Shown: in pieces, positions 26,292 through 36,420 of the stretch
Numbering within the stretch: the first letter of the stretch is position 1
Layout of the letters: each line of letters starts with the position of its first letter
Assembly (NCBI GenBank): GCA_024276735.1
Contig: JAJRWQ010000068.1
Location: 1 to 52,189, forward strand
Direction of reading: 5' to 3'
DNA: 52,189 bases
Source of the DNA: Actinomycetes bacterium
Lineage (GTDB): Bacteria > Actinomycetota > Thermoleophilia > BMS3ABIN01
Notes under the pieces: model-generated
Told to the model about the DNA's origin: nothing
The model's input: the letters and a program-made list of their open reading frames with translations, nothing else
Database searches by the model: none
Made by a program: the position numbers and the translations under genes

Positions 26292-27497
26292 TCAAATCGC
26301 CATCTTGCTGACGAACTCGTCCTGGAAAGTCTTGTCGAGGGGCAACGCCACGTGCCTGATGATGCCGCGGAGCTCTTCGAGCTGCTCTCGCCCTGCCTCG
26401 TCCAGCATCATCACCGCTCCCCGGCAGGCCGCGTCGTCCAGCACCTCCACCCGGTCGTTGGGCAGGTCGGGGAACATCTTCAGCAGCCGGGCGTTGTCCA
26501 GGTTGATGTAGCTGCCGAAAGTTCCGGTAATAAGCATGTGGTCGAGATCCTGCACGCCGCTCTTTGCCTGGAGCACGGCGATGGCCGCGTGCACCGATGC
26601 CTTCACCAGCTGGAAGGAGCGGATGTCGCGCTGGTCCAGGGTGATGGCGGTGTCGCCGTCCTCGGCAATCACCACCGGCCCCTCCCGCAGCAGCCGCCCG
26701 CCGGCATCGACCCAGTCGTTGCGCCGGAGCTCGGCGATGATATCGATCAGCCCGGAGCCGCAGATCCCCCGCGGCTCGCCGCCGCCCACCACTTCACACT
26801 GGAAGCGCTCGCCGTCGAGCCGCGCCTTGTAAATGGCGCCCTAGCTGGCCGAAACGCCGAAAGACATGTGCGTATCCTCGTAGGCGGGCCCGGCGGGGCT
26901 CGACGCCACCCATATCTTGCCGCGGCCGCCCAGGGTCATCTCGCAGTTGGTGCCCACGTCGATCACCAGCCGCGGCCGTTCGCTGGCCGCCATGTCCACC
27001 AGCAGGATGTCGGCCAGGGCGTCGGCGCCGACGAAGCCGAAGATGGGCCGGGGGACGAACAGGTTCGCATCCCCGAGCGCGATGCCGAGATCGGCGGCAG
27101 GCCCGTAGAAATCCTCTGCTCCCCTGAGGTTGAACGGCGTGCCGCAGAGAGGCGACGGATCGAGGTCGAGAAGGAAGGCGAACATGGCGGAGTTGCCCAC
27201 CACCACCAGCTCCCGCACCCGGCCGGGATCCACGCCGGCGCGCCGGCAAAGCTCGGCGGCGGACGAGCCCACGGCTTCGATCGCCTGGTTGTGCAGGGAA
27301 GCACGTACGCCCTCGTCCTCGGCCGCCTTTCCCAGGCGGCTGGCGATGTCGGCGCCATGTTCCTTCTGGGGATTGGGCACCACCAGCGTTTCCAGCGCCC
27401 GTTTTCCGGGCAGCTCCACCAGGCGGAGCCAGATACTCGAGGTCCCCAAGTCCACGGCGATGCCGTAGGACTCCTTGGCTTTGTGGTCGATACTCAT
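26292..27497 (-). CDS. ASKHA-domain corrinoid reductive activator (RACo/RamA/DUF4445-like) with an in-frame TAG at 26841-26843; recoded, pseudogene or sequencing error
   Basis: YGIAVDLGTS, NPQ..GADIASR, FGFVGADA, VIDVGTNCE, PAGPAYE, then TAG, then in the same frame GAIYK...PRGICGSGLIDIIAEL, QRDIRSFQLVKA, GTFGSYI. Confidence 0.85.
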
Positions 27498-27690
27498 TTT
27501 CTCCCGTACAGGCGGAGTCGCCGCGCTCGAACCTGGAAAACCTTGCGTTCCCGGAGTGGAGGCGGGGGTCCGTTCCCAGTCGGCGGGCACCGGTGAAAAA
27601 AGGGTAGCAGAAAAGAAGCATGCAGACAAATCCTGCAAATCAACGATATTCCGTATCAGTACAAATACTGTGGAATTGGCCATATTCCTC

Positions 27691-27699
27691 TGGTAGACT
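27691..27699 (+). promoter_or_regulatory. extended -10 promoter (TGn-TAGACT) for the radical SAM/GT operon
   Basis: TGGTAGACT in an AT-rich divergent intergenic region, about 150 nt upstream of ATG 27847. Confidence 0.45.
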
Positions 27700-27846
27700 T
27701 GAACCGGGTAGGGACCACGATGGGGTGGTAGTAACCGGCTGCGGCACTTCACGTCGTTGCCACCATGGTCTCCGCGCAGTAAATTCACTATATTTGTGGG
27801 CACGGGCGTGCCCTACCCTGGAAGAAAACGACGACAAGAGGCGTTC

Positions 27847-29313
27847 ATGAAAGCAATGGTGATCCTGCCGGCCTGGCGGCCGGACGATATCTATCCCTCC
27901 AAGCTGGCCAAGTCGGCGGTGAGCTACCAGCATCCCCTGGGGCTGTTGTATATCGCCACCTGCATGCTGGAGGCGGGCCACGAGGTGGAACTGGTGGACG
28001 GCGCCTTCTGGACCCAGTCGCAGGTGCTGGAGAAGGTGAAGCGCTTCCGCCCCGATTTCGTGGGCATCTCCGCCAACGCCTCCATGTGGAAGAAGGCCTG
28101 CCGCACCGCCGCCGACATCAAGGAGCTGGACGCCGGCATCCACGTTTCCGCCGCCGGCCCCTATCCCACCGCGGTGGAAGAGAAATGCCTCGAGCAGTGC
28201 GAGCACCTGGACTCGGTGGTGATCGGCGAGGGCGAGGAGACGGTGCCGGAGCTGATGGAGCGGCTGGAGTCCGGCGGCGACCTGGCGGGGGTGGCCGGCG
28301 TGGCCTACCGCAACGGGGACGGCGAGATCGTCACCAACCAGCCGCGGCCACTGATCGAGGACCTGGATTCCATCCCCATCCCCCGCCGCGAGCTGCTGGG
28401 TGACTTCGACAAGTACGAATCACCGCCGGGCAGCTACAAGCAGAAGCCGATCGCCATCGTCATGACCTCCCGCGGCTGCAAGGCCCGCTGCATCTACTGC
28501 TTCCAGATGAAGGGCGAGCGGCGCATCCGCTTCCGCAGCGTGGAGAACGTGGTCCAGGAGGTGGAGGAGCTGGTCAACCACTACGGCTTCCGGGAGATCC
28601 GGTTCCTGGACGAGACCTTCACCGCCGACCGCGAGCGGGCGATGGAGATCGTCCGGCGCTTCCGGGAGAAGAAGCTAAAGTTCAGCTGGTACATCTCCTC
28701 GCGGGTCAACACCGTCGACTACGAGATGCTGCGCGAGTTCAAGAAGGCCGGCTGCTGGGCGGTGCTCTTCGGCGCCGAGAGCGGCGTGCAGAAGAACCTG
28801 AACACCATGCGCAAGGGCATCACCCTGGACCAGACGCGGGCGGCAGTAAAGGCAGCCAAGAAGGCCGGCCTCAAGGTCTACACCCCGTTCATCATCGGCA
28901 TCCCCGGCGAGACCTACGAGGAAGCGCTTAAGACCATCGACTTCGCCATCGAGCTCGATCCCCACTACGCCAACTTCCATTCCATGACTCCCTTCCCGGG
29001 AACCGAGCTCTACGAGAACATCGAGCAGTACGGCACCATGTCCGGTGACACCGACGACTACACCTTCGAGGGCGCCGCCTTCGTTCCCTATACCATGACC
29101 CGGGAGCAGATCGAGGAGCTGCGCACCATCGGCTTCCGCAAGTTCTACTCCCGGCCCCGCTTCATCCTCCGGCGCCTGTTCGAGGTACGCAACTGGTACG
29201 ACCTCAAGACCGTGGCCAAGGGCGCCGGCAGCTTCTTCTGGCTGTGGGTGAAGCGTGACTCGCTGAAGGTGGACCGCTCCGCCAAGGCCGCCTCGGAGAG
29301 CGAGGAAGGCTGA
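27847..29313 (+). CDS. cobalamin-dependent (class B) radical SAM protein
   Basis: N-terminal B12-binding domain (HPLGLLYIA, AGPYPT, VIGEGE), TSRGCKARCIYC, FGAESG, TPFPGT. Confidence 0.92.
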   Translation: MKAMVILPAWRPDDIYPSKLAKSAVSYQHPLGLLYIATCMLEAGHEVELVDGAFWTQSQVLEKVKRFRPDFVGISANASMWKKACRTAADIKELDAGIHVSAAGPYPTAVEEKCLEQCEHLDSVVIGEGEETVPELMERLESGGDLAGVAGVAYRNGDGEIVTNQPRPLIEDLDSIPIPRRELLGDFDKYESPPGSYKQKPIAIVMTSRGCKARCIYCFQMKGERRIRFRSVENVVQEVEELVNHYGFREIRFLDETFTADRERAMEIVRRFREKKLKFSWYISSRVNTVDYEMLREFKKAGCWAVLFGAESGVQKNLNTMRKGITLDQTRAAVKAAKKAGLKVYTPFIIGIPGETYEEALKTIDFAIELDPHYANFHSMTPFPGTELYENIEQYGTMSGDTDDYTFEGAAFVPYTMTREQIEELRTIGFRKFYSRPRFILRRLFEVRNWYDLKTVAKGAGSFFWLWVKRDSLKVDRSAKAASESEEG

Positions 29314-30452
29314 TGGCGAAGCAACAGCATCAGCGCGCGTCCGCCGCGCCGGAGCAGGCCGCCGCCCAGCAACGGGCGCCCGCCGGGAAGCCGGCCCGGG
29401 AGGCGGAGCCGCCGGCGGCCGCCGCGGTGGAGCAGCCGCGGGTGTCGGTGGTGATCCCGCTCTACAACGGCGCCCGCACCATCGAGGAAGTGCTGAAGGC
29501 GGTCTACGCCTCCACCTTCCGGGATTTCGAGGTGGTGATCGTCAACGACTGCTCCAGCGACGACAGCCTGGAGGTGCTGGCCTCGCTGGCCGACCGCTAT
29601 CCCCACCGGCTGGTCGACTTCGAGGAGAACCGCGGCGTATCCCGTGCCCGCAACGCCGGCGCCGAGGCCGCCCGCGGCGACATCATCTTCTTCATCGATG
29701 CCGACTGCCTGGTGCTGCCGCGCACCATCGAGCTCTGCGTCACCGAGCTCGAGCGCGGCGGCAGCATCTGCGTCGGCGGCGCCTACACCACCAAGCCCTG
29801 GGACGACGACTTCTTCAGCATCTTCCAGTCTCTCTACATCCACCACGTGGAAACCAAGGAAGAGCACCCCGATTACGTGGCCACCCACTGCATGGCCATC
29901 CGCAAGTCGACGTTCGAGGAATTCGGCGGCTTCATCACCGACTCGTTCATCGGCCATGCCGCCAGCGTGGAAGACGTGGAGCTCTCGCACCGCCTCATCG
30001 CCGCCGGCCACCAGCTCTCCCGGCCCCCGGGAATCCTGGTGCGGCACATGTTCGGCTTCAACTTCACCCGCTCCATCAGGAACGCCGTGAAGAAGAGCAA
30101 GTACTGGACCATGTACTCGCTCAAGAACCGCGACGTGATGCAGGACTCCGGCGCCGCCTCCCACGAGCTGAAGGTGAACGTCTTCACCCAGCTGCTCAAC
30201 CTGGGGCTGCTGGGAGTGGCCGCGGTAACCGGCCGCCGGTGGCCGCTGCTGCCGGCGGCGGCCCTGCTGGCGGTGAACCTGGCGGTGAACTCCCGCTTCC
30301 TGCTGCTGGTGAGGCGCGAGGAAGGCTGGGCGTTCCTGGCCAAGGCCATCGCCTATTACCTGCTCGTCTACCCCTTCGTGGTCGCGTACGGCTCCGGGAT
30401 CGGCACGCTCAAGTATGCCTGGGAGGTCAAGCTGCTCGGGCGCTACGCCTAG
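29313..30452 (+). CDS. GT2 family glycosyltransferase with C-terminal TM helices
   Basis: VSVVIPLYN, VNDCSSD, NRGVSRARNAG, FFIDAD, VEDVELS. Confidence 0.92.
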   Translation: MAKQQHQRASAAPEQAAAQQRAPAGKPAREAEPPAAAAVEQPRVSVVIPLYNGARTIEEVLKAVYASTFRDFEVVIVNDCSSDDSLEVLASLADRYPHRLVDFEENRGVSRARNAGAEAARGDIIFFIDADCLVLPRTIELCVTELERGGSICVGGAYTTKPWDDDFFSIFQSLYIHHVETKEEHPDYVATHCMAIRKSTFEEFGGFITDSFIGHAASVEDVELSHRLIAAGHQLSRPPGILVRHMFGFNFTRSIRNAVKKSKYWTMYSLKNRDVMQDSGAASHELKVNVFTQLLNLGLLGVAAVTGRRWPLLPAAALLAVNLAVNSRFLLLVRREEGWAFLAKAIAYYLLVYPFVVAYGSGIGTLKYAWEVKLLGRYA

Positions 30453-30460
30453 CGGAAACG

Positions 30461-31573
30461 ATGGGGAGCATGCTCGCATACGCGCGCCACGTGCCGGCGA
30501 TCTTCGTCAAACGCAACGTGCTGCAGTTCACCTTCTTCATCACCTCGCGCTGTAACGCCCGCTGCCCCTTCTGCTTTTACTGGAAAGACCGCCACCGCAA
30601 GCGCGACGAGCTCTCGCTGGAAGAGATCGAGCGCTTTGCCGCCACCATGGACGACCTCCTCTGGCTGCTCTTCTCCGGCGGCGAGATCTTCCTGCGCCGG
30701 GACCTGCCCGCGATCGCCGCCGCCTTCTACCGCCACACGCGGCCGGCGATCATCACCCTGCCCACCAACGGCCTGTCGCCGCGACTGATCCTGCCCGCGG
30801 TGGAGGAGATCGCCGGTGCCTGTCCCGAGAGCGCGGTGGTAGTGAAGGTCTCGCTGGACGGCGTGGGCGAGGAACACGACCGCATCCGCAACACGCCCGG
30901 CAACTTCGAGAAGGCGATGGAGACCTGGGAGGGCCTGCGGCGGCTGGGGGAGCGGTACCCGAACCTGCAGATCGGCATCAACACCGTCTTCTGCCACGAG
31001 AACCAGGAGATGATGGACGAGATCATCGATTTCGTCAACACGCTTCCCGGCTGCGAGACGCACACCATCTCCCTGGTGCGCGGCGACCCCGCCGACGAGG
31101 AATACAAGCACATCGACCTGGAGAAGTACCGGCGGGCGGTGGAGCGGCTGGAGGTGGACCTCAAGGGCGGCGAGAACGCCAAGATGTATCACTTCGCCAT
31201 GGCGCGGCTGAAGTCGGCCCAGGACCTGGTGCAGCGGCGGCTGATCTACGAGACCGTGCGCAGCAGCCGCCGGCAGCTGCCCTGCTATGCCGGGCGGATA
31301 ACCGCGGTGATGAACGAGGTGGGCGACGTCTTTCCCTGCGAGATCCTGCCGGCGAAGATGGGAAACATCCGCGATTTCGCATATGATTTCGGGGAACTGA
31401 TGCGCTCGGCCGCCGCCGACGAGGTGCGGGCGCGGATACACCGGAGCCGCTGTTACTGTTCGCATGAGTGTTACTTCGTCACCAACATCCTCTTCAACCC
31501 CCTCATGTACGCCCGCGTCCTCAAGGAGTACTCCCAGCTCGGCGGCGGAAACACCGGCACCGTTGCCGGCTAG
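30461..31573 (+). CDS. radical SAM protein with a C-terminal twitch/SPASM-like domain
   Basis: ITSRCNARCPFC, FSGGE, PTNG, VSLDG, CYAG...GDVFPCE...CYCSHEC. Confidence 0.9.
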   Translation: MGSMLAYARHVPAIFVKRNVLQFTFFITSRCNARCPFCFYWKDRHRKRDELSLEEIERFAATMDDLLWLLFSGGEIFLRRDLPAIAAAFYRHTRPAIITLPTNGLSPRLILPAVEEIAGACPESAVVVKVSLDGVGEEHDRIRNTPGNFEKAMETWEGLRRLGERYPNLQIGINTVFCHENQEMMDEIIDFVNTLPGCETHTISLVRGDPADEEYKHIDLEKYRRAVERLEVDLKGGENAKMYHFAMARLKSAQDLVQRRLIYETVRSSRRQLPCYAGRITAVMNEVGDVFPCEILPAKMGNIRDFAYDFGELMRSAAADEVRARIHRSRCYCSHECYFVTNILFNPLMYARVLKEYSQLGGGNTGTVAG

Positions 31574-33221
31574 CCGGCGACGCACCCTCCTGCTGCTGGC
31601 GCTGGTCTGCGGCTTCACCCTGCTGCTGGCGCTGCCCTTCCTGGGCCAGGCCTTCCACATCGACGACGCCATCTTCTGGGACTTCGCCAAAAACAACCTG
31701 CGGCACCCCTTCAGCCTGCACCTGGACGACTACCACCTGATGGGAGAGGATTTCTCGCGCTGGCGGGACACGCACCCGCCCCTGGATTCGCTGTACCTGT
31801 CGCTGGTGATGGTCGTCACCGGCAGCGACTCCGAGGTGCCGCTGCACGCCGGCTTCCTGCTCTTCCCCCTGGTCGGCGGGGTGGCGATGGACTTCCTGGC
31901 GCGCCGCTTCACCCGCCGGCCGCCGGCGGCGGCGCTGGCGCTGCTGGCGACGCCGGCGGTGATGACGCTCTCCCACACGCTGATGGCGGACGTGCCGATG
32001 ATGTCCTTCTGGATCGCCGCCACCGCCTGCTACGTGCACGGCGTCGACCGCGGCGACCGCCGCCTGCTGGCGGCAGCCTCGCTGCTGGTCACCGTGGACC
32101 TCTTCACCGGCTACCAGGCGCTGGCGCTGCTGGTGCTGCTGCCACTCTACCCGCTGGCCAGGGGAAAGCTCTCCCGCGCCAGCCTGGTGCCGTTGCTGCT
32201 GCCGGTCCTGGCCTTTGGCCTCTACACCCTCTACAACCTGTATGCCTACGGCGAGCCACCGCGTTTCGCCCATGCCAACGGCACCAGCTTCAACTGGGGG
32301 CACGTGCTGGACCGCCTGCAGGGGATGCTGCTGCAGGTGGGCGGAACCTCGCTGTTTCCGCCGCTGCTGCTGGCGATCTTCTCCGCCCGGCGCCGCCGCT
32401 GGGTGCTGGCGCCCTTCATGCTGGCGCTGGCCGCCGCCTGCGGCTACTACGGCAACGGCCTCGCCGGCCTGCGGCTGGCCTTCTACACGGTGATGCTGGC
32501 CGCGGCGCTGGCAGTGATTGTGACGCTGGCCGGCGAGGGCGCCCGGCAGTTCGCCCGCGCCCGGCGCGGCAGGTCGGTGGACCTGGACTTCGTCTTCCTG
32601 TCCGCCTGGCTGGCATTCATGTTCGCAGCCACGGTGATGCTGCTGCCGCACGCGCCGGCCAAGTACACCCTGGTCTTCCTGCCGCCGCTGGTGTTGCTGG
32701 CTTTCCGGGAGCTCGACGCCCTGCCCCTGTCCCGCAGGGCCCTGGATGCCACCGCCGCCCTGGTGGTGGTCACCACCCTGGCGGCCGGCACCCTGGTCTC
32801 CGTCGCCGACTACCGGCTGGCCGCGTCCTACCGCGACTTCGCCGGCGAGGTCGCCGCCGCCCGGCAGTCGGGCGCGTACGGTGGCGAGGTGTGGTTCGTG
32901 GGCGAGTGGGGCTTTAGGCACTACATGGAGGCCGCGGGCTTTCACTACCTCTCCCGCGGAAACGAATCCCCGGCCGCCGGTGATATCATCGTGCGCCCCT
33001 CGGTGGCCGATTGGCCGCTGGCGCCCGCGGTGCGCGACCGCATGCAGGTGGCCGAAGTTCGGGAGGTGGAATGGGGCTTTCCCCTGCGGCTGATGGGCCG
33101 CGACGCCGACGCCGGCTTCTACGGCACCTACTGGGGTCTGCTGCCATACTCGCCGTCCCGGACGCCGCTGGAGCGCTTCACCGTCTACCGGGTGGGGGCC
33201 GCGGCGGGGGCGGAACGCTGA
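31563..33221 (+). CDS. GT-C fold polytopic membrane glycosyltransferase (ArnT/PMT-like)
   Basis: First loop FHIDD, HPPL motif, many TM helices, C-terminal extracytoplasmic domain; probable TTG start at 31563. Confidence 0.8.
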   Translation: MPASRRRTLLLLALVCGFTLLLALPFLGQAFHIDDAIFWDFAKNNLRHPFSLHLDDYHLMGEDFSRWRDTHPPLDSLYLSLVMVVTGSDSEVPLHAGFLLFPLVGGVAMDFLARRFTRRPPAAALALLATPAVMTLSHTLMADVPMMSFWIAATACYVHGVDRGDRRLLAAASLLVTVDLFTGYQALALLVLLPLYPLARGKLSRASLVPLLLPVLAFGLYTLYNLYAYGEPPRFAHANGTSFNWGHVLDRLQGMLLQVGGTSLFPPLLLAIFSARRRRWVLAPFMLALAAACGYYGNGLAGLRLAFYTVMLAAALAVIVTLAGEGARQFARARRGRSVDLDFVFLSAWLAFMFAATVMLLPHAPAKYTLVFLPPLVLLAFRELDALPLSRRALDATAALVVVTTLAAGTLVSVADYRLAASYRDFAGEVAAARQSGAYGGEVWFVGEWGFRHYMEAAGFHYLSRGNESPAAGDIIVRPSVADWPLAPAVRDRMQVAEVREVEWGFPLRLMGRDADAGFYGTYWGLLPYSPSRTPLERFTVYRVGAAAGAER

Positions 33222-33249
33222 GCCTCTTTTCGCCGCGGGCACCGTAGCA

Positions 33250-34664
33250 TCAGGGAAGAAAGATGATGCGGGCGCTGCGCAGGTAGTTGCGGGCGATGGC
33301 GGGGGTGGTGAACTTGCGCAAATGATGTACCAGCACGTCGGGCTGGAGGTAGAAGCGCAGGTAGGCGCGCCGGAGCGCACCCAGCAGCTCCCGGTGACTC
33401 AACTCCGGTGCCGGTACACCAGCCTGCCGCTGACGCTGTAATCCCGCCAGTCGTCGGTGAGCAGCAGGCCATGGCTCCGGCAGCGCTCGTACTCGGCGGT
33501 GCCCGGGAAGGGCACCATGGTGGCGAAGCCGGCACTGTTCAGGTCCAGTTGCCGGGAGAACTCCATCGTCTCCCGGATGGTCTCCCGGGTGTCCTCCAGG
33601 AAACCGAAGATGAAGTAGCCGTGGGCGGAGATCCCCGCGCGCCTGGTGGCGGTGACCGCCTCGGCCACCTCTTCGCGGGTGAGCCGCTTGATCTTCAGCA
33701 GCATTTCGGCGTTGCCCACCTCGATGCCGTACTGGATCAGGCGGCACCCCGCCGCTTTCATCGCTTCCAGTTTCTCGGCCCCAATCTCGTTGGCGCGGGC
33801 GTTGCAGGTCCAAGCGATCTTCATGCCGCTTTCCACGATCGCCTCGCACAGCTCCAGCAGCCGGCGGCGACTGCAGATCATGGACGGGTCGCGGAAAGAG
33901 AAGACGCTGACTCCGTACTCGCGGTAAAGCCATTCCATCTCGGCGAAGACGTTGTCGGCGCTGCGCAGGCGATAGCGCTTGCCCTGCTGCGAGGTGACTT
34001 CGCAGAAACAGCAATCGTACGGGCAGCCGCGGCCACTGACGATGGAAGAGAAAGTACCGCCGGTGCCCCACGAGGGGAAGGGATTGTAAGAGGACGGGTG
34101 TGGCAGCAGGTCGTGGGCGGGAAAGGGAACCGAATCCAGTTGCTGGTTCTTCTCCCGGGGCGGCGCCGCCGTCACCTCACCGCCGCGGCCGACGAAGGTC
34201 CCGGGGATCTCTTCAAGGGAAGACCCGCCCGCCACCGCGTCGCAGAGGTCGGCCATCACCGCCTCCCCCTCGCCTACCACCACCACGTCCACGCACGGCT
34301 TCGCCACGGTCTCCCGCGGCAGCGCCGAAACGTGCGGCCCCCCGGCCACGGTGACCACGCCGTGGTCGAGCTCCTTGACGAGCCCCAGCAGTGCCTCGGC
34401 ATCGGGCCACTGGGGAGTCAGTGCCGAGACCCCCACCACCCGGGGCCGGAACTCTTCCAGGTGCCGGCGAAGCTCCCGGCGCGGGATGCCCAGCGAGTAA
34501 GCATCGAGGATCGCCACCGTGTGCCCGCGCTCGCGCACCGCCGCCGCCACGTAGGCCAGTCCCAGCGGCTGGGTCCAGAGCAGCGGTTTCTCCACCCGGC
34601 CCCGCCAAAGCCCCCGCGGCGGCGTCAGCAGCAGGACCCTGCAACCGTTTCCGTTCTCGCTCAA
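33250..34664 (-). CDS. cobalamin-dependent radical SAM protein; frameshift at ~33406-33408
   Basis: QPLGLAYVAA, GGPHVS, VGEGE, GRGCPYDCCFC, VPFPGT. The C-terminus PELSHRELLGALRRAYLRFYLQP continues in the -1 frame to 33250. Confidence 0.88.
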
Positions 34665-34776
34665 CTTCCCCCCTCCCGCGCCCGTCCGCGGGCGTTGCCA
34701 TCCCGGCGCGGGTACGCTCCGGCAGGCCCGGTGACCCGTGGTCACTGCGGTGAAGGTTGCCGCCGCCTGCGGGCAC

Positions 34777-35415
34777 TCACCCGCCCAGCAGCTCGCGGCA
34801 GACGGCGAGCGTGCCCTTGACGTCGGCGGCGAAGCCGTCGACGCCCACCTCGCTGGCCAGCTCCTGCGAGTGCGAGGCGCCGCCGGAGACCACCTTCACC
34901 CCTTCCCGGAGCCCCTCGGCCTCGAGGGTTTCCAGGATGTCCATCAGCGCCGGCTTGGTGGAAGTGGTGAAGGCCGAGAGCAGCAGCAGGTCGGCGCCGG
35001 TCTCCCTCACCTTGTCGATGAACTTGGCGGTGGAGACGTTGACGCCCAGGTCGTGCACCTCGTAACCGGCGGCCCTGAGGGCGGCGACGATGATGTTCTT
35101 GCCGATGTTGTGAATGTCTCCCTTGACGGTGCCGATGACCACCACCCCGCTCTGGTCGTGCCGCTGCTCGAAGAGGTAGGGTTCCAGGATCGCCATCGCC
35201 CGCTCCACGGCGTCGGCGCTGCGCAGCATCTCCGGGATGAAGTACTCGCCCGTCTCGTAGCGGCTGCCCACTTCCTCCATGGCCGCCGACAGGCTGGCGA
35301 AGACGTCTTCCGCCGCCACGGCGCCGTCGCCGGCGATCTCCCGCGCCAGCGCCTCCGTGCGCTCGCTGTCGCCGTCGATTATCGATTGTTGAAACTCTGC
35401 CAGGGTTTTTTCCAT
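34777..35415 (-). CDS. methyltransferase-cognate corrinoid protein (MtbC/MttC-like)
   Basis: Cap domain (MEEVGSRYETGEYFIPEML), GTVKGDIHNIGKNI (DxHxxG), DLGVNV, SGGA. Confidence 0.93.
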   Translation of the reverse strand: MEKTLAEFQQSIIDGDSERTEALAREIAGDGAVAAEDVFASLSAAMEEVGSRYETGEYFIPEMLRSADAVERAMAILEPYLFEQRHDQSGVVVIGTVKGDIHNIGKNIIVAALRAAGYEVHDLGVNVSTAKFIDKVRETGADLLLLSAFTTSTKPALMDILETLEAEGLREGVKVVSGGASHSQELASEVGVDGFAADVKGTLAVCRELLGG

Positions 35416-35418
35416 GGT

Positions 35419-36420
35419 TCAGCTCCCGTATTTCCTGCCGTATTCTACCAGCGCCGCCAGGTTCTCGTCAGGGGTCTCGCGGGGAATGGAATCGCCGCTG
35501 CTGAGAATGAAGCGGCCGTCCGCCGCCGCCGCGGCCCGGCGTACCGCTGCCTCCACGTCGGCGACGGTGCCCTTTTCCAGGACCGCCACGGCGTCGATGT
35601 TGCCCTTGAGGGTGATCCCCGGCCCCACCGCCTCCCGGGCCGCCGCCAGGTCCACCAGCGAGTCCACCTCCAGGGCGTCGGCGCCCGTCTGCGCCATCTG
35701 CGCCAGGATGGGCCCGCTGTTGCGACAGATGTGGAGGATCACCGGCACTTCTCCCCCCAGCTCGGCGATCGCCTCCACCTCGTAGGGAAAGGCGAACTCG
35801 CGGTAGTGATCGGGCGAGATCACGCTGGAAGAAGCAAAGGAATCCTTGATCACCACGGCATCCACCCCCGCCTGCGCCAGCGCCTGCGCCGTCACCACCG
35901 TGGCAGGCAACATCGCCCTGATCAACCGGTGCACGAAATCGGGGTCGCGGTAGAAATCGGTCATGAACCCGGCCAGGCCGCGCACGGTGGCGGCGTACTC
36001 GAAGGGCGAGCGCACCGACCCGAGAACGGCGTGGCGGCCGGCCGCCGCTTCCACCACTTTCTGCACCGGCTCCATCTTGCCGCCGGCCCAGGGGTCCGGG
36101 GTCCCGATCTTCTCCAGGTCACCGGGGCCGTCGACCAGCGTCTCCACCACCAGGGGAACGTCGTTTCCCTGTACCTCCACCGGGCAGCCCAGCACCGACG
36201 GGGGATCGCCCAGCCCCATCTCGGCGAGGATGCCGTCGTAGCCGTACCGTTCCCGCGCCGCGGTGAGCGCCGCCGCCATGCAGTCGCCGTCGAGAAAGCA
36301 CTCGTCGTTGTCGCGGCCGATGACCTTGGGGGCATAGAAGCCGTCCACCACCGGCACGATGGGCAACGTGTCGGCGGGCTCCCCGGCCAGCGCCGCCAGG
36401 AACCGTTCGCGGCCGTTCAC
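35419..36420 (-). CDS. MtaA/CmuA-like methyltransferase (uroporphyrinogen decarboxylase family)
   Basis: RERFLAAL.GEP.D, SPFE.A..VRG, ISPDHYREFAFPY, ILHIC, LKGNID, FILSSG.SIP..TP.ENL; the GTG start overlaps the rsfS stop (GTGA). Confidence 0.88.
   Translation of the reverse strand: MNGRERFLAALAGEPADTLPIVPVVDGFYAPKVIGRDNDECFLDGDCMAAALTAARERYGYDGILAEMGLGDPPSVLGCPVEVQGNDVPLVVETLVDGPGDLEKIGTPDPWAGGKMEPVQKVVEAAAGRHAVLGSVRSPFEYAATVRGLAGFMTDFYRDPDFVHRLIRAMLPATVVTAQALAQAGVDAVVIKDSFASSSVISPDHYREFAFPYEVEAIAELGGEVPVILHICRNSGPILAQMAQTGADALEVDSLVDLAAAREAVGPGITLKGNIDAVAVLEKGTVADVEAAVRRAAAAADGRFILSSGDSIPRETPDENLAALVEYGRKYGS

Follow-up and report, generated by a model that had tools for sequence, protein, structure and literature searches.

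A Candidate Family-specific Juxtaposition of Two Cobalamin-using Gene Units at a Thermoleophilia-type Locus

INTRODUCTION

Do eight adjacent genes for a corrinoid methyl-transfer module, three radical S-adenosylmethionine (SAM) enzymes, and two glycosyltransferases specify a single cobalamin-dependent pathway, or are they separate units that lie together in one bacterial family? The question is raised by positions 26292–36420 of contig JAJRWQ010000068.1 (assembly GCA_024276735.1, Actinomycetes bacterium), a stretch of 52,189 nucleotides that is referred to here, at its full length, as the window. The original prediction for this DNA was that the eight genes form a candidate new cell-envelope modification system into which the corrinoid module may have been recruited. 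We read the locus, tentatively and with a probability of roughly 45%, as a family-specific juxtaposition of two cobalamin-using units, a glycan/radical core and a corrinoid kit, and not as one conserved eight-gene system.

RESULTS

Gene Order and Its Conservation within One Family

All eight predicted gene families were recovered by Pfam at 26292–36420, where the locus is bounded by a signal peptidase gene and rsfS. The genes fall into three transcription units on two strands: a minus-strand gene for a RACo-like activator; a divergent plus-strand block (27847–33221) encoding a cobalamin-binding radical SAM protein (B12rSAM1), a family 2 glycosyltransferase (GT2), a radical SAM protein putatively of the SPASM/twitch type (twitch rSAM), and a PMT_2-type glycosyltransferase of the GT-C class; and a convergent minus-strand block encoding a URO-D methyltransferase, a corrinoid protein (CP), and a second cobalamin-binding radical SAM protein (B12rSAM2). 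The eight genes do not form one co-directional operon. Given that the coding G+C pattern of the genome is seen in all eight genes, and that orthologues with 46–85% identity keep the same order in 10 of 10 related loci, the genes are considered real rather than chance open reading frames. Here, the plus-strand block is termed unit 1; URO-D, CP, and B12rSAM2, together with the RACo-like gene beyond unit 1, are termed unit 2.

Linkage of all eight genes was found only within one Thermoleophilia-type family. RACo, B12rSAM1, GT2, the twitch rSAM, CP, and URO-D occur in the same order in 10 of the 10 family loci, which represent several genera. The genes proA, nadD, LCP, rsfS, signal peptidase, and an AP-endonuclease-like gene are equally syntenic in these loci. 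Because such housekeeping flanks are kept just as well, synteny within the family is attributed to common descent and not to function. In most family loci, CP is followed by one or two cobalamin-binding radical SAM (B12-rSAM) genes, with two copies in L115 and L120. An orthologue of B12rSAM2 (57–61% identity) was present in seven of the 10 loci, a paralogue (32–33%) in two, and neither in one.

Distribution of the Two Units outside the Family

A scan of species genomes with an alignment of the twitch rSAM returned 80 loci, 62 of which came from other phyla, including Nitrospirota, Desulfobacterota, metagenome-assembled genomes (MAGs) of Gamma- and Betaproteobacteria, Hydrothermarchaeota, and other archaea. 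GT2 and the twitch rSAM were present in all 62 distant loci and were neighbors in all but one (L075), the twitch rSAM homologues being 49–56% identical across phyla. Orthologues of B12rSAM1 (48–57% identity) accompanied them in 18 of the 62. RACo, CP, and URO-D were found in none of these 62 loci (tblastn at 1e-8), and a whole-genome search of 30 distant genomes that carry the core gave best URO-D matches of ≤37% identity, whereas the clade of the window protein starts at 42%. Among 401 sampled Actinomycetota genomes, the twitch rSAM occurred in 3 of 3 sampled from the family of the window, in five of one other family (∼50% identity), and once at 34%. The five loci of this second actinobacterial family contained the twitch rSAM (5/5), B12rSAM1 (4/5), and GT2 (4/5), and corrinoid genes were seen in 0 of 5.

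The clade of the URO-D protein is narrow: identity is 63–75% in Thermoleophilia-labelled proteins and 45–54% in a few others, and then falls to ≤37%. A metagenome scan with an alignment of this clade returned 14 loci, of which nine have the family arrangement, CP being followed by zero, one, or two B12-rSAM genes. Two further loci, L122 and L123 (72% G+C), belong to an unrelated lineage in which a tight same-strand row encodes a short RACo (36% identity), URO-D (42%), CP (44%), a 234-residue protein, and two B12-rSAMs of 549 and 551 residues; pantothenate/CoA genes come after the B12-rSAM pair, and no glycosyltransferase is present in the row. The L122 proteins are reciprocal best matches to the RACo, URO-D, and CP of the window, not to the full-length RACo that the source genome encodes elsewhere, and the long RACo frame of L122 has the character of non-coding DNA in its N-terminal portion. 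URO-D of the L122 type was found among the 401 Actinomycetota genomes only in the window's own family. Locus L124 (31% G+C) has URO-D at 30% and CP at 37% identity on a 1.4-kb contig without room for neighbors. Other families of the same class encode a classical full-length RACo with CP and one or two URO-D proteins, and without B12-rSAM genes.

The two gene sets therefore largely part company elsewhere: neither the 62 distant loci nor the five of the second actinobacterial family have corrinoid genes beside the core, and the nearest outside relatives of the corrinoid trio, in L122 and L123, stand without a glycosyltransferase. Separation of this kind is what the original prediction had named as counting against it.

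Two loci of the metagenome scan, L119 (157–5857) and L118, whose URO-D proteins are the closest to the clade from outside it, carry sucD, a true hemE, and a gene for an STT3/AglB-type oligosaccharyltransferase beside URO-D and CP, which suggests an archaeal or archaeal-like host. In the family of the window itself, at least one genome has, at L138 (G009:C27), a separate set of classical appearance that comprises a third RACo (33% identity), a URO-D (27%), and a CP (29%).

The Radical SAM/Glycosyltransferase Unit

No other gene of the locus is as well conserved as B12rSAM1 (27847–29313, plus strand; start ATG 27847), which shows 75–85% identity inside the family and has matches to B12-binding (7.1e-21) and Radical_SAM (1e-28) in Pfam. 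B12rSAM2 (33399–34745, minus strand), the last gene of the rsfS-URO-D-CP operon, matches the same two families (1.9e-24 and 7.9e-21). Each protein consists of an N-terminal B12-binding domain and a radical SAM core, with the motifs CKARCIYC and CPYDCCFC, and by domains and motifs both qualify as predicted class B (cobalamin-dependent) radical SAM enzymes. The nearest named NCBIfam families of B12rSAM1 are HpnJ and BchE. Against HpnJ (TIGR03471, cut-off 577.6), B12rSAM1 scored 240.5 bits, and 165.4 bits was also recorded; the alignment is full-length, covering residues 85–500 and profile positions 57–470 of 472. The closest solved chain is that of AprD4 (6fd2, 2.9e-28, residues 195–441).

GT2 (29313–30452, plus strand; Glycos_transf_2, 4e-32), whose start overlaps the B12rSAM1 stop by one base, comprises a GT-A domain with a DADC motif and two hydropathy segments (315–333 and 339–359) predicted to form two C-terminal transmembrane helices. 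Across 15 sequences it has invariant motifs and a conserved amphipathic stretch, YWTMYSL-N-RD...DSG-AS. Its AlphaFold model (pLDDT 87.8) resembled Chlorella hyaluronan synthase at TMq 0.60–0.63 and the archaeal mannosyltransferase PcManGT (6yv7) at 0.51–0.54, as compared with 0.38 for DPMS (5mlz) and GtrB (9nyf). Of the NCBIfam profiles, ArnC aligned with only the N-terminal 115 residues, and HpnI over the full length (E 5e-10) at 38.7 bits (cut-off 310). On this model, the GT2 is probably membrane-embedded and nearer to synthase-like GT2s than to DPMS or GtrB; the earlier suggestion that it loads a polyprenol carrier is not established by this comparison.

The twitch rSAM (30461–31573, plus strand; Radical_SAM, 4e-18) has eight cysteines that are invariant in 16 sequences: C35, C39, C42, C279, C297, C335, C337, and C341. 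The last five lie in the C-terminal part, where the SPASM match reaches 18.8 bits, under the cut-off of 21.5. No N-terminal peptide-recognition domain was found in the protein. The model (pLDDT 81.3) gave generic matches only, to SkfB, anSME, BlsE, and DesII at TMq 0.5–0.6, and an Atlas fold search with it returned only unnamed radical SAM clusters.

The GT-C protein (31464–33221, plus strand; alternative start TTG 31563) has at least eight hydrophobic segments and PMT_2 homology above the cut-off (30.8 bits; cut-off 26.1). A hidden Markov model of 21 distant GT-C proteins gave it 22.6 bits, and two further GT-C proteins of the same genome scored just as well. Given that orthology is not demonstrable, the conserved core of unit 1 is taken to be the trio of B12rSAM1, GT2, and the twitch rSAM, to which some GT-C appears, from sequence comparison, to be a frequent but replaceable partner. 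In one genus, a protein of 625–628 residues with a LamG/ConA-like lectin domain is encoded between GT-C and B12rSAM2 (L022, 11015–12901; L023, 7913–9790; L117, 8259–10145), and in L023 this protein occupies the position of GT-C itself.

The genes that recur beside the core in 67 distant loci are those for a YeeE-like Sulf_transp protein (21 loci), a PMT_2 GT-C (21), B12rSAM1 (20), Usp (20), an ABC ATPase (18), an FtsX-type permease (18), a 380-residue protein (18), and an amine-oxidase-like flavoprotein (10). In the source genome, a Sulf_transp gene on contig C11 (3277–7958; L139) precedes genes for DsrE-like and rhodanese proteins, and its product is 43–49% identical to those encoded between B12rSAM1 and GT-C in distant loci (also L049, L060, L078, and L086). 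That genes of the Sulf_transp, Usp, DsrE-like, and rhodanese kinds recur beside the core trio may point to a connection with sulfur, from which no mechanism is derived. On contig C41 (L140, 6967–11157), a flavoprotein 48% identical to the one of the distant loci is followed by PIG-V-like and PMT_2-type GT-C genes.

A hopanoid hpnIJ cluster was ruled out by the HpnI and HpnJ scores below cut-off and by the lack of a convincing cyclase, the only squalene-hopene cyclase C-domain match in the genome being one of 27 bits at positions 145–284. The cluster showed no gene for an HpnK-type deacetylase.

The Corrinoid Protein and the URO-D Methyltransferase

The CP (34777–35415, minus strand; B12-binding_2, 3.1e-15; B12-binding, 1.5e-22) consists of a helical cap and a Rossmann B12-binding domain in which the D-x-H-x-x-G motif reads GDIHNIG. 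It scored 156.3 bits against the NCBIfam profile pyl_corrinoid (TIGR02370), below the cut-off of 215.3. The URO-D protein (35419–36420, minus strand; URO-D, 204 bits) resembles MtaA and CmuA: it scored 157.5 bits against TIGR01463 (cut-off 235.4), and its closest solved chain is that of MtaA (4ay7, 2.2e-26, residues 15–337). Its GTG start at 36420 overlaps the TGA stop of rsfS (GTGA, 36417–36420), so that the corrinoid genes appear to be translationally coupled to the housekeeping operon proA-nadD-LCP-rsfS. A single URO-D-family match to the window protein was found in the genome.

The predicted zinc ligands of the URO-D protein are His241, Cys243, and Asp321, the aspartate aligning with the cysteine of the MtaA motif PGC and being kept throughout the clade, L122 included. 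In the part of a preprint by Kountz and Balskus that we consulted (PMC10418091), S-methyltransferases of the URO-D superfamily have a His-Cys-Cys site, and O-methyltransferases have, in place of one or both cysteines, a carboxylate or a residue that does not coordinate the metal. Under this rule, the His-Cys-Asp site would indicate an enzyme that handles an oxygen-bound methyl group. Such a site would fit equally a methoxy demethylase feeding the Wood-Ljungdahl pathway and O-methyl chemistry on a biosynthetic intermediate.

The observation that no substrate-specific methyltransferase (MT1) is encoded in the window holds, and the MttB type was also not found in the 89.6%-complete genome; MtmB, MtbB, MtaB, and MtrH were not searched for. 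No tetrahydrofolate (H4folate) methylase gene adjoins the corrinoid genes, and the only pterin-binding genes of the genome are one found on contig C77 (307 bits) and one linked to acs.

The Short RACo-like Activator and Its TAG Codon

The activator gene (26292–27497, minus strand) encodes the RACo middle domain (Raco_middle, 1.6e-33) and the ASKHA C-terminal domain (RACo_C_ter, 7.9e-35) only, in ∼400 residues. Pfam detected no ferredoxin-type Fe-S domain, the frame upstream of the activator reads as non-coding, and the match to AcsV in NCBIfam (191 bits, cut-off 800) is confined to profile positions 205–619 of 632. Orthologues without stops were found in 23 of 23 genomes of the same family (65–73% identity), with open frames down to 402–409 residues. 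Given the non-coding upstream sequence and the length of these frames, the activator is concluded to lack a ferredoxin-type domain. Characterized activators of this kind have an Fe-S domain of their own for electron input, an N-terminal [2Fe-2S] domain in RACo and a C-terminal 2×[4Fe-4S] domain in RamA. Short forms (≤410 residues, match from residue 2–9) made up ∼16 of the best 150 matches, and seven of the top 12, in a profile search over 1.84 billion representatives. The assignment as an ASKHA corrinoid activator thus stands as regards its RACo domains; the protein is short, without a ferredoxin-type domain, and in this genome its gene is interrupted by TAG.

The in-frame TAG codon lies at 26841–26843 and occurs in this genome alone by comparison with the 23 same-family genomes. 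In 17 distinct relatives, the equivalent codon is GAG (11), GAT (1), CGG (2), GCN (2), or CAA (1). Pyrrolysine insertion or read-through was ruled out by these sense codons, by a best PylS match of only 15.1 bits in the genome, by the absence of tRNA-Pyl among the 36 tRNAs detected (genome 89.6% complete), and by the use of TAG as terminator in 220 of 787 long coding-like open reading frames, including the GT2 and twitch rSAM genes of the locus. The codon is a GAG-to-TAG point change, reflecting either a pseudogene, a minority allele, or a sequencing or assembly error; unit 2 may therefore be impaired in this genome, or the base call may be wrong. In a screen of reads for the site, only two runs contained 0.05–0.09 of the sampled words. 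A complex prediction for the short RACo with B12rSAM1 gave a score of 0.00 in two runs without controls, which counts neither way.

The Window and the Source Genome

The window has a G+C content of 68% and encodes mostly housekeeping functions, among them ATP synthase, ruvAB, queuosine genes, secDF, pdxST, and proBA. An Rfam scan of the window at gathering scores detected no RNA and no cobalamin riboswitch. The source assembly comprises 1.61 Mb in 120 contigs, and close homologues are labelled as Thermoleophilia, Gaiellales, or Actinomycetota MAGs.

Eleven B12-binding domains were found in the source genome. Five of the corresponding genes, all for B12-binding radical SAM proteins, lie on one strand of contig C72 (878–19249; L125), together with genes for two class I SAM methyltransferases, two asparagine-synthase-like amidotransferases, a Wzx-type flippase, and a 640-residue protein without assignment. 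Contig C117 (4319–21833; L127 and L128) carries a set of the Wood-Ljungdahl type that includes a full-length RACo (656-residue open frame), CdhC/acetyl-CoA synthase, and a pterin-binding methyltransferase. A tRNA-Sec gene was detected in the genome.

DISCUSSION

Proposed Roles of the Two Units

Gene content, conservation patterns, and motifs at this locus were observed, and from them each chemical step and product is inferred. The membrane-anchored GT2 of unit 1 would attach a sugar to an acceptor in the membrane, which may be polyprenyl phosphate or a lipid. Given that radical SAM enzymes need cytoplasmic SAM and a reductant, the sugar would be remodeled on the inner face of the membrane, B12rSAM1 perhaps catalyzing a deoxygenation of the AprD4/HpnJ type, a ring rearrangement, or a C-methylation, and the twitch rSAM an oxidation, an epimerization, or a decarboxylation-type reaction. 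The GT-C may then move the remodeled product onto an envelope acceptor. The pointer to sugar chemistry is AprD4, the closest solved relative of B12rSAM1, for which the NCBIfam name is that of a radical SAM diol-dehydratase family. The envelope context consists of the PMT_2 GT-C here and in 21 of 67 distant loci, the LamG/ConA-like insert in three relatives, and the glycan-type cluster on contig C72. The envelope-glycosylation character originally ascribed to the locus is retained on the strength of GT2, GT-C, and that insert.

Unit 2 would constitute a corrinoid methyl-transfer kit of the oxygen type, the ATP-dependent activator of which has probably lost its own electron-input domain. Because its clade travels with B12-rSAM genes in the two lineages in which sufficient flanking sequence was recovered, we infer that it is a partner of such enzymes and not a free-standing catabolic demethylase; it might share a substrate with the B12-rSAMs or keep their cobalamin methylated or reduced. 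The balance tips, only modestly, toward a role tied to these enzymes, given that a second methyltransferase is missing, that the activator has no Fe-S domain, and that B12-rSAM genes are found beside the trio repeatedly. The idea that the corrinoid module was recruited into biosynthesis survives in spirit, on account of the occurrence of RACo, URO-D, and CP beside B12-rSAM genes in the unrelated loci L122 and L123, and is not supported in the form of one conserved eight-gene system.

Several observations weigh against the interpretation of the locus as two juxtaposed units with these roles. The arrangement is such as an integrated system would show, with unit 1 lying between RACo and URO-D/CP and with RACo divergent from B12rSAM1. 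The link between unit 2 and B12-rSAMs rests on two lineages only: within the family, L017 and L121 have no B12-rSAM gene after CP, and L118 and L119, in which URO-D (54–55% identity) and CP occur on contigs of 5.7–7.7 kb, show none on these contigs. The His-Cys-Asp site fits an ordinary catabolic O-demethylase equally, and the Wood-Ljungdahl set of the genome could accept the methyl group. None of the eight genes reaches a curated NCBIfam cut-off, and the radical SAM folds, as modeled, seem to offer no clue to substrate. In its fold, the GT2 of unit 1 is more like PcManGT and hyaluronan synthase than DPMS or GtrB, so that loading of polyprenyl phosphate is not established, and no flippase gene was seen in the locus cluster. 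The GT-C, present in nine of the 10 family loci and missing in L023, was dropped as a member of the conserved core because its orthology to the distant PMT_2 GT-C proteins could not be demonstrated.

Alternative Explanations

The first alternative is that RACo, CP, and URO-D form an ordinary catabolic O-demethylase, with URO-D as MT1 beside CP and the activator, that feeds the Wood-Ljungdahl pathway, in which case proximity to the radical SAM and glycosyltransferase genes would be meaningless. His-Cys-Asp is the O-type pattern under the superfamily rule, as set out in the consulted part of PMC10418091; the genome encodes a full-length RACo (contig C117) as well as CdhC/acetyl-CoA synthase and the pterin-binding methyltransferase linked to acs; and classical sets of RACo, CP, and URO-D without B12-rSAM genes exist in other families of the class. 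We nevertheless consider this explanation unlikely, though slightly more probable than the other alternatives. No H4folate methylase adjoins the trio, its activator is without the Fe-S domain of characterized activators, its operon is coupled to the housekeeping gene rsfS, and the clade recurs with B12-rSAMs in the tight operon of a second lineage.

That all eight genes serve one cobalamin-dependent envelope pathway, in which the corrinoid trio either services the B12-rSAMs or methylates the displayed sugar or lipid, appears rather improbable. It gains from the six genes kept in 10 of 10 family loci, from the presence of the short RACo in 23 of 23 family genomes, from the flanking of the glycosyltransferase/radical SAM block by RACo and URO-D/CP, with a divergent intergenic region shared by RACo and B12rSAM1, and from the position of the corrinoid trio beside B12-rSAM genes in L122 and L123. 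The last two loci have no glycosyltransferase genes, however, and synteny within one family is weak evidence given that the housekeeping flanks are as syntenic. Moreover, no co-occurrence was seen outside the family, whether in the 62 distant loci, the five loci of the second actinobacterial family, or the 30 distant genomes, and of the eight genes only that of the activator is interrupted in this genome.

A further possibility, likewise rather improbable but to be taken seriously, concerns unit 1 only: a pathway that builds a lipid head group in the manner of HpnI/HpnJ or of calditol synthesis, with GT2 glycosylating a membrane lipid directly, B12rSAM1 turning the sugar, by contraction or rearrangement of its ring, into an acid-stable carbocycle, and GT-C standing outside the pathway. 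HpnJ is the best NCBIfam family of B12rSAM1 and matches it over the full length, as HpnI does GT2, and the GT2 fold is nearer to membrane-embedded synthase-type enzymes than to DPMS or GtrB. In addition, 46 of the 67 distant loci lack a GT-C, the window protein is not a demonstrable orthologue of those in the others, and HpnI/HpnK/HpnJ and Cds are described precedents in the consulted part of PMC13459092. Against this, both scores are far under their cut-offs (240 versus 577 and 38.7 versus 310 bits), the genome has no convincing squalene-hopene cyclase (27 bits, partial match) and the cluster no visible HpnK-type deacetylase, a PMT_2 GT-C accompanies the core trio in 21 of 67 distant and nine of 10 family loci, and the second radical SAM enzyme would be left without a role.

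Least probable of all is an extension of the unit 2 proposal, namely that the short RACo, CP, and His-Cys-Asp methyltransferase are a dedicated service system for B12-rSAMs, recruited in this family to a pan-phylum radical SAM/GT2 pathway for a modified envelope sugar or lipid head group. Such a system might return inactive Co(II) to Co(I) at the expense of ATP, or act as a corrinoid shuttle that brings in methyl groups from a donor other than SAM. The activator could then do without an Fe-S domain of its own, the client enzyme providing the route for electrons.

Significance

The trio of B12rSAM1, GT2, and twitch rSAM is kept at ∼50% identity from archaea to Proteobacteria and matches no curated family. 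A literature search, in which supplementary files were not covered, found no published account of this trio or of its pairing with corrinoid genes, in line with the original statement that the combination is not a described pathway. Given such wide conservation without a family or published match, the product is likely to be a widespread envelope or lipid component of anaerobes.

To our knowledge, no helper proteins for cobalamin-dependent radical SAM enzymes have been described. Their activity is difficult to maintain in vitro, and a CP, a methyltransferase, and an Fe-S-less activator that recur beside them would be a testable candidate for the means by which their cobalamin stays reduced or methylated in the cell. 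If the corrinoid trio is only an O-demethylase, the subsurface users of methoxy compounds would gain a Thermoleophilia-type lineage whose activator is unusual. New here are the Asp variant of the zinc site, a second lineage that pairs the corrinoid trio with B12-rSAMs in the absence of glycosyltransferases, the broken activator, and the lack of demonstrable orthology among the GT-C proteins.

Comparison with Known Systems

Three-component extracytoplasmic glycosylation is represented by ArnC/ArnD/ArnE-F/ArnT, GtrA/GtrB/GtrC, and Ppm1/Pmt. Like these systems, the locus encodes a membrane GT2 and a PMT_2/ArnT-like GT-C in one operon, and tailoring enzymes are encoded between the two that, in the manner of ArnD, would act on a carrier-linked sugar before export. 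By contrast, the tailoring enzymes of the locus are two predicted radical SAM enzymes, one of them cobalamin-binding; its GT2 appears, by Foldseek ranking, not to be of the DPMS/GtrB/ArnC fold class; the cluster has no flippase gene; and its GT-C is not conserved with the core trio across phyla.

Radical ring contraction of a lipid-linked hexose has precedents, according to the consulted part of PMC13459092, in the HpnI/HpnK/HpnJ route to bacteriohopanetetrol cyclitol ether and in the calditol synthase Cds. The locus shares with HpnI/HpnJ the pairing of a membrane GT2 with an HpnJ-like B12-domain radical SAM protein, and differs in having no hopanoid pathway or deacetylase, an additional rSAM, putatively of the SPASM/twitch type, and often a GT-C. 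A further likeness is to AprD4, the radical SAM diol dehydratase of apramycin biosynthesis, a radical enzyme that acts on a sugar. By contrast, only the radical SAM half of B12rSAM1 aligns with AprD4, the NCBIfam AprD4 profile gives 113 bits against a cut-off of 500, and the context of the locus is unrelated to aminoglycoside biosynthesis.

Corrinoid methyltransferase systems with an ATP-dependent activator include MtaABC/RamA, the acetogen O-demethylases Odm/Vdm with their activating enzyme, and RACo-CFeSP. With these the locus shares a URO-D-superfamily methyltransferase, a His-on CP, and an ASKHA activator that are encoded together. It departs from them in its single methyltransferase, with neither a second one nor an H4folate methylase, in an activator without Fe-S, in His-Cys-Asp in place of His-Cys-Cys ligands, and in its linkage to B12-rSAMs. 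Type 1 mlp clusters, as described in the consulted part of PMC10418091, contain at least Mlp2 and Mlp3 with His-Cys-Cys sites, a CP, and Ram/RACE, and serve methyl-sulfur and methyl-selenium metabolism; the locus has one methyltransferase, with a His-Cys-Asp site. In summary, the parts of the locus come from known superfamilies, and their arrangement departs from the defining features of each of the systems with which it was compared.

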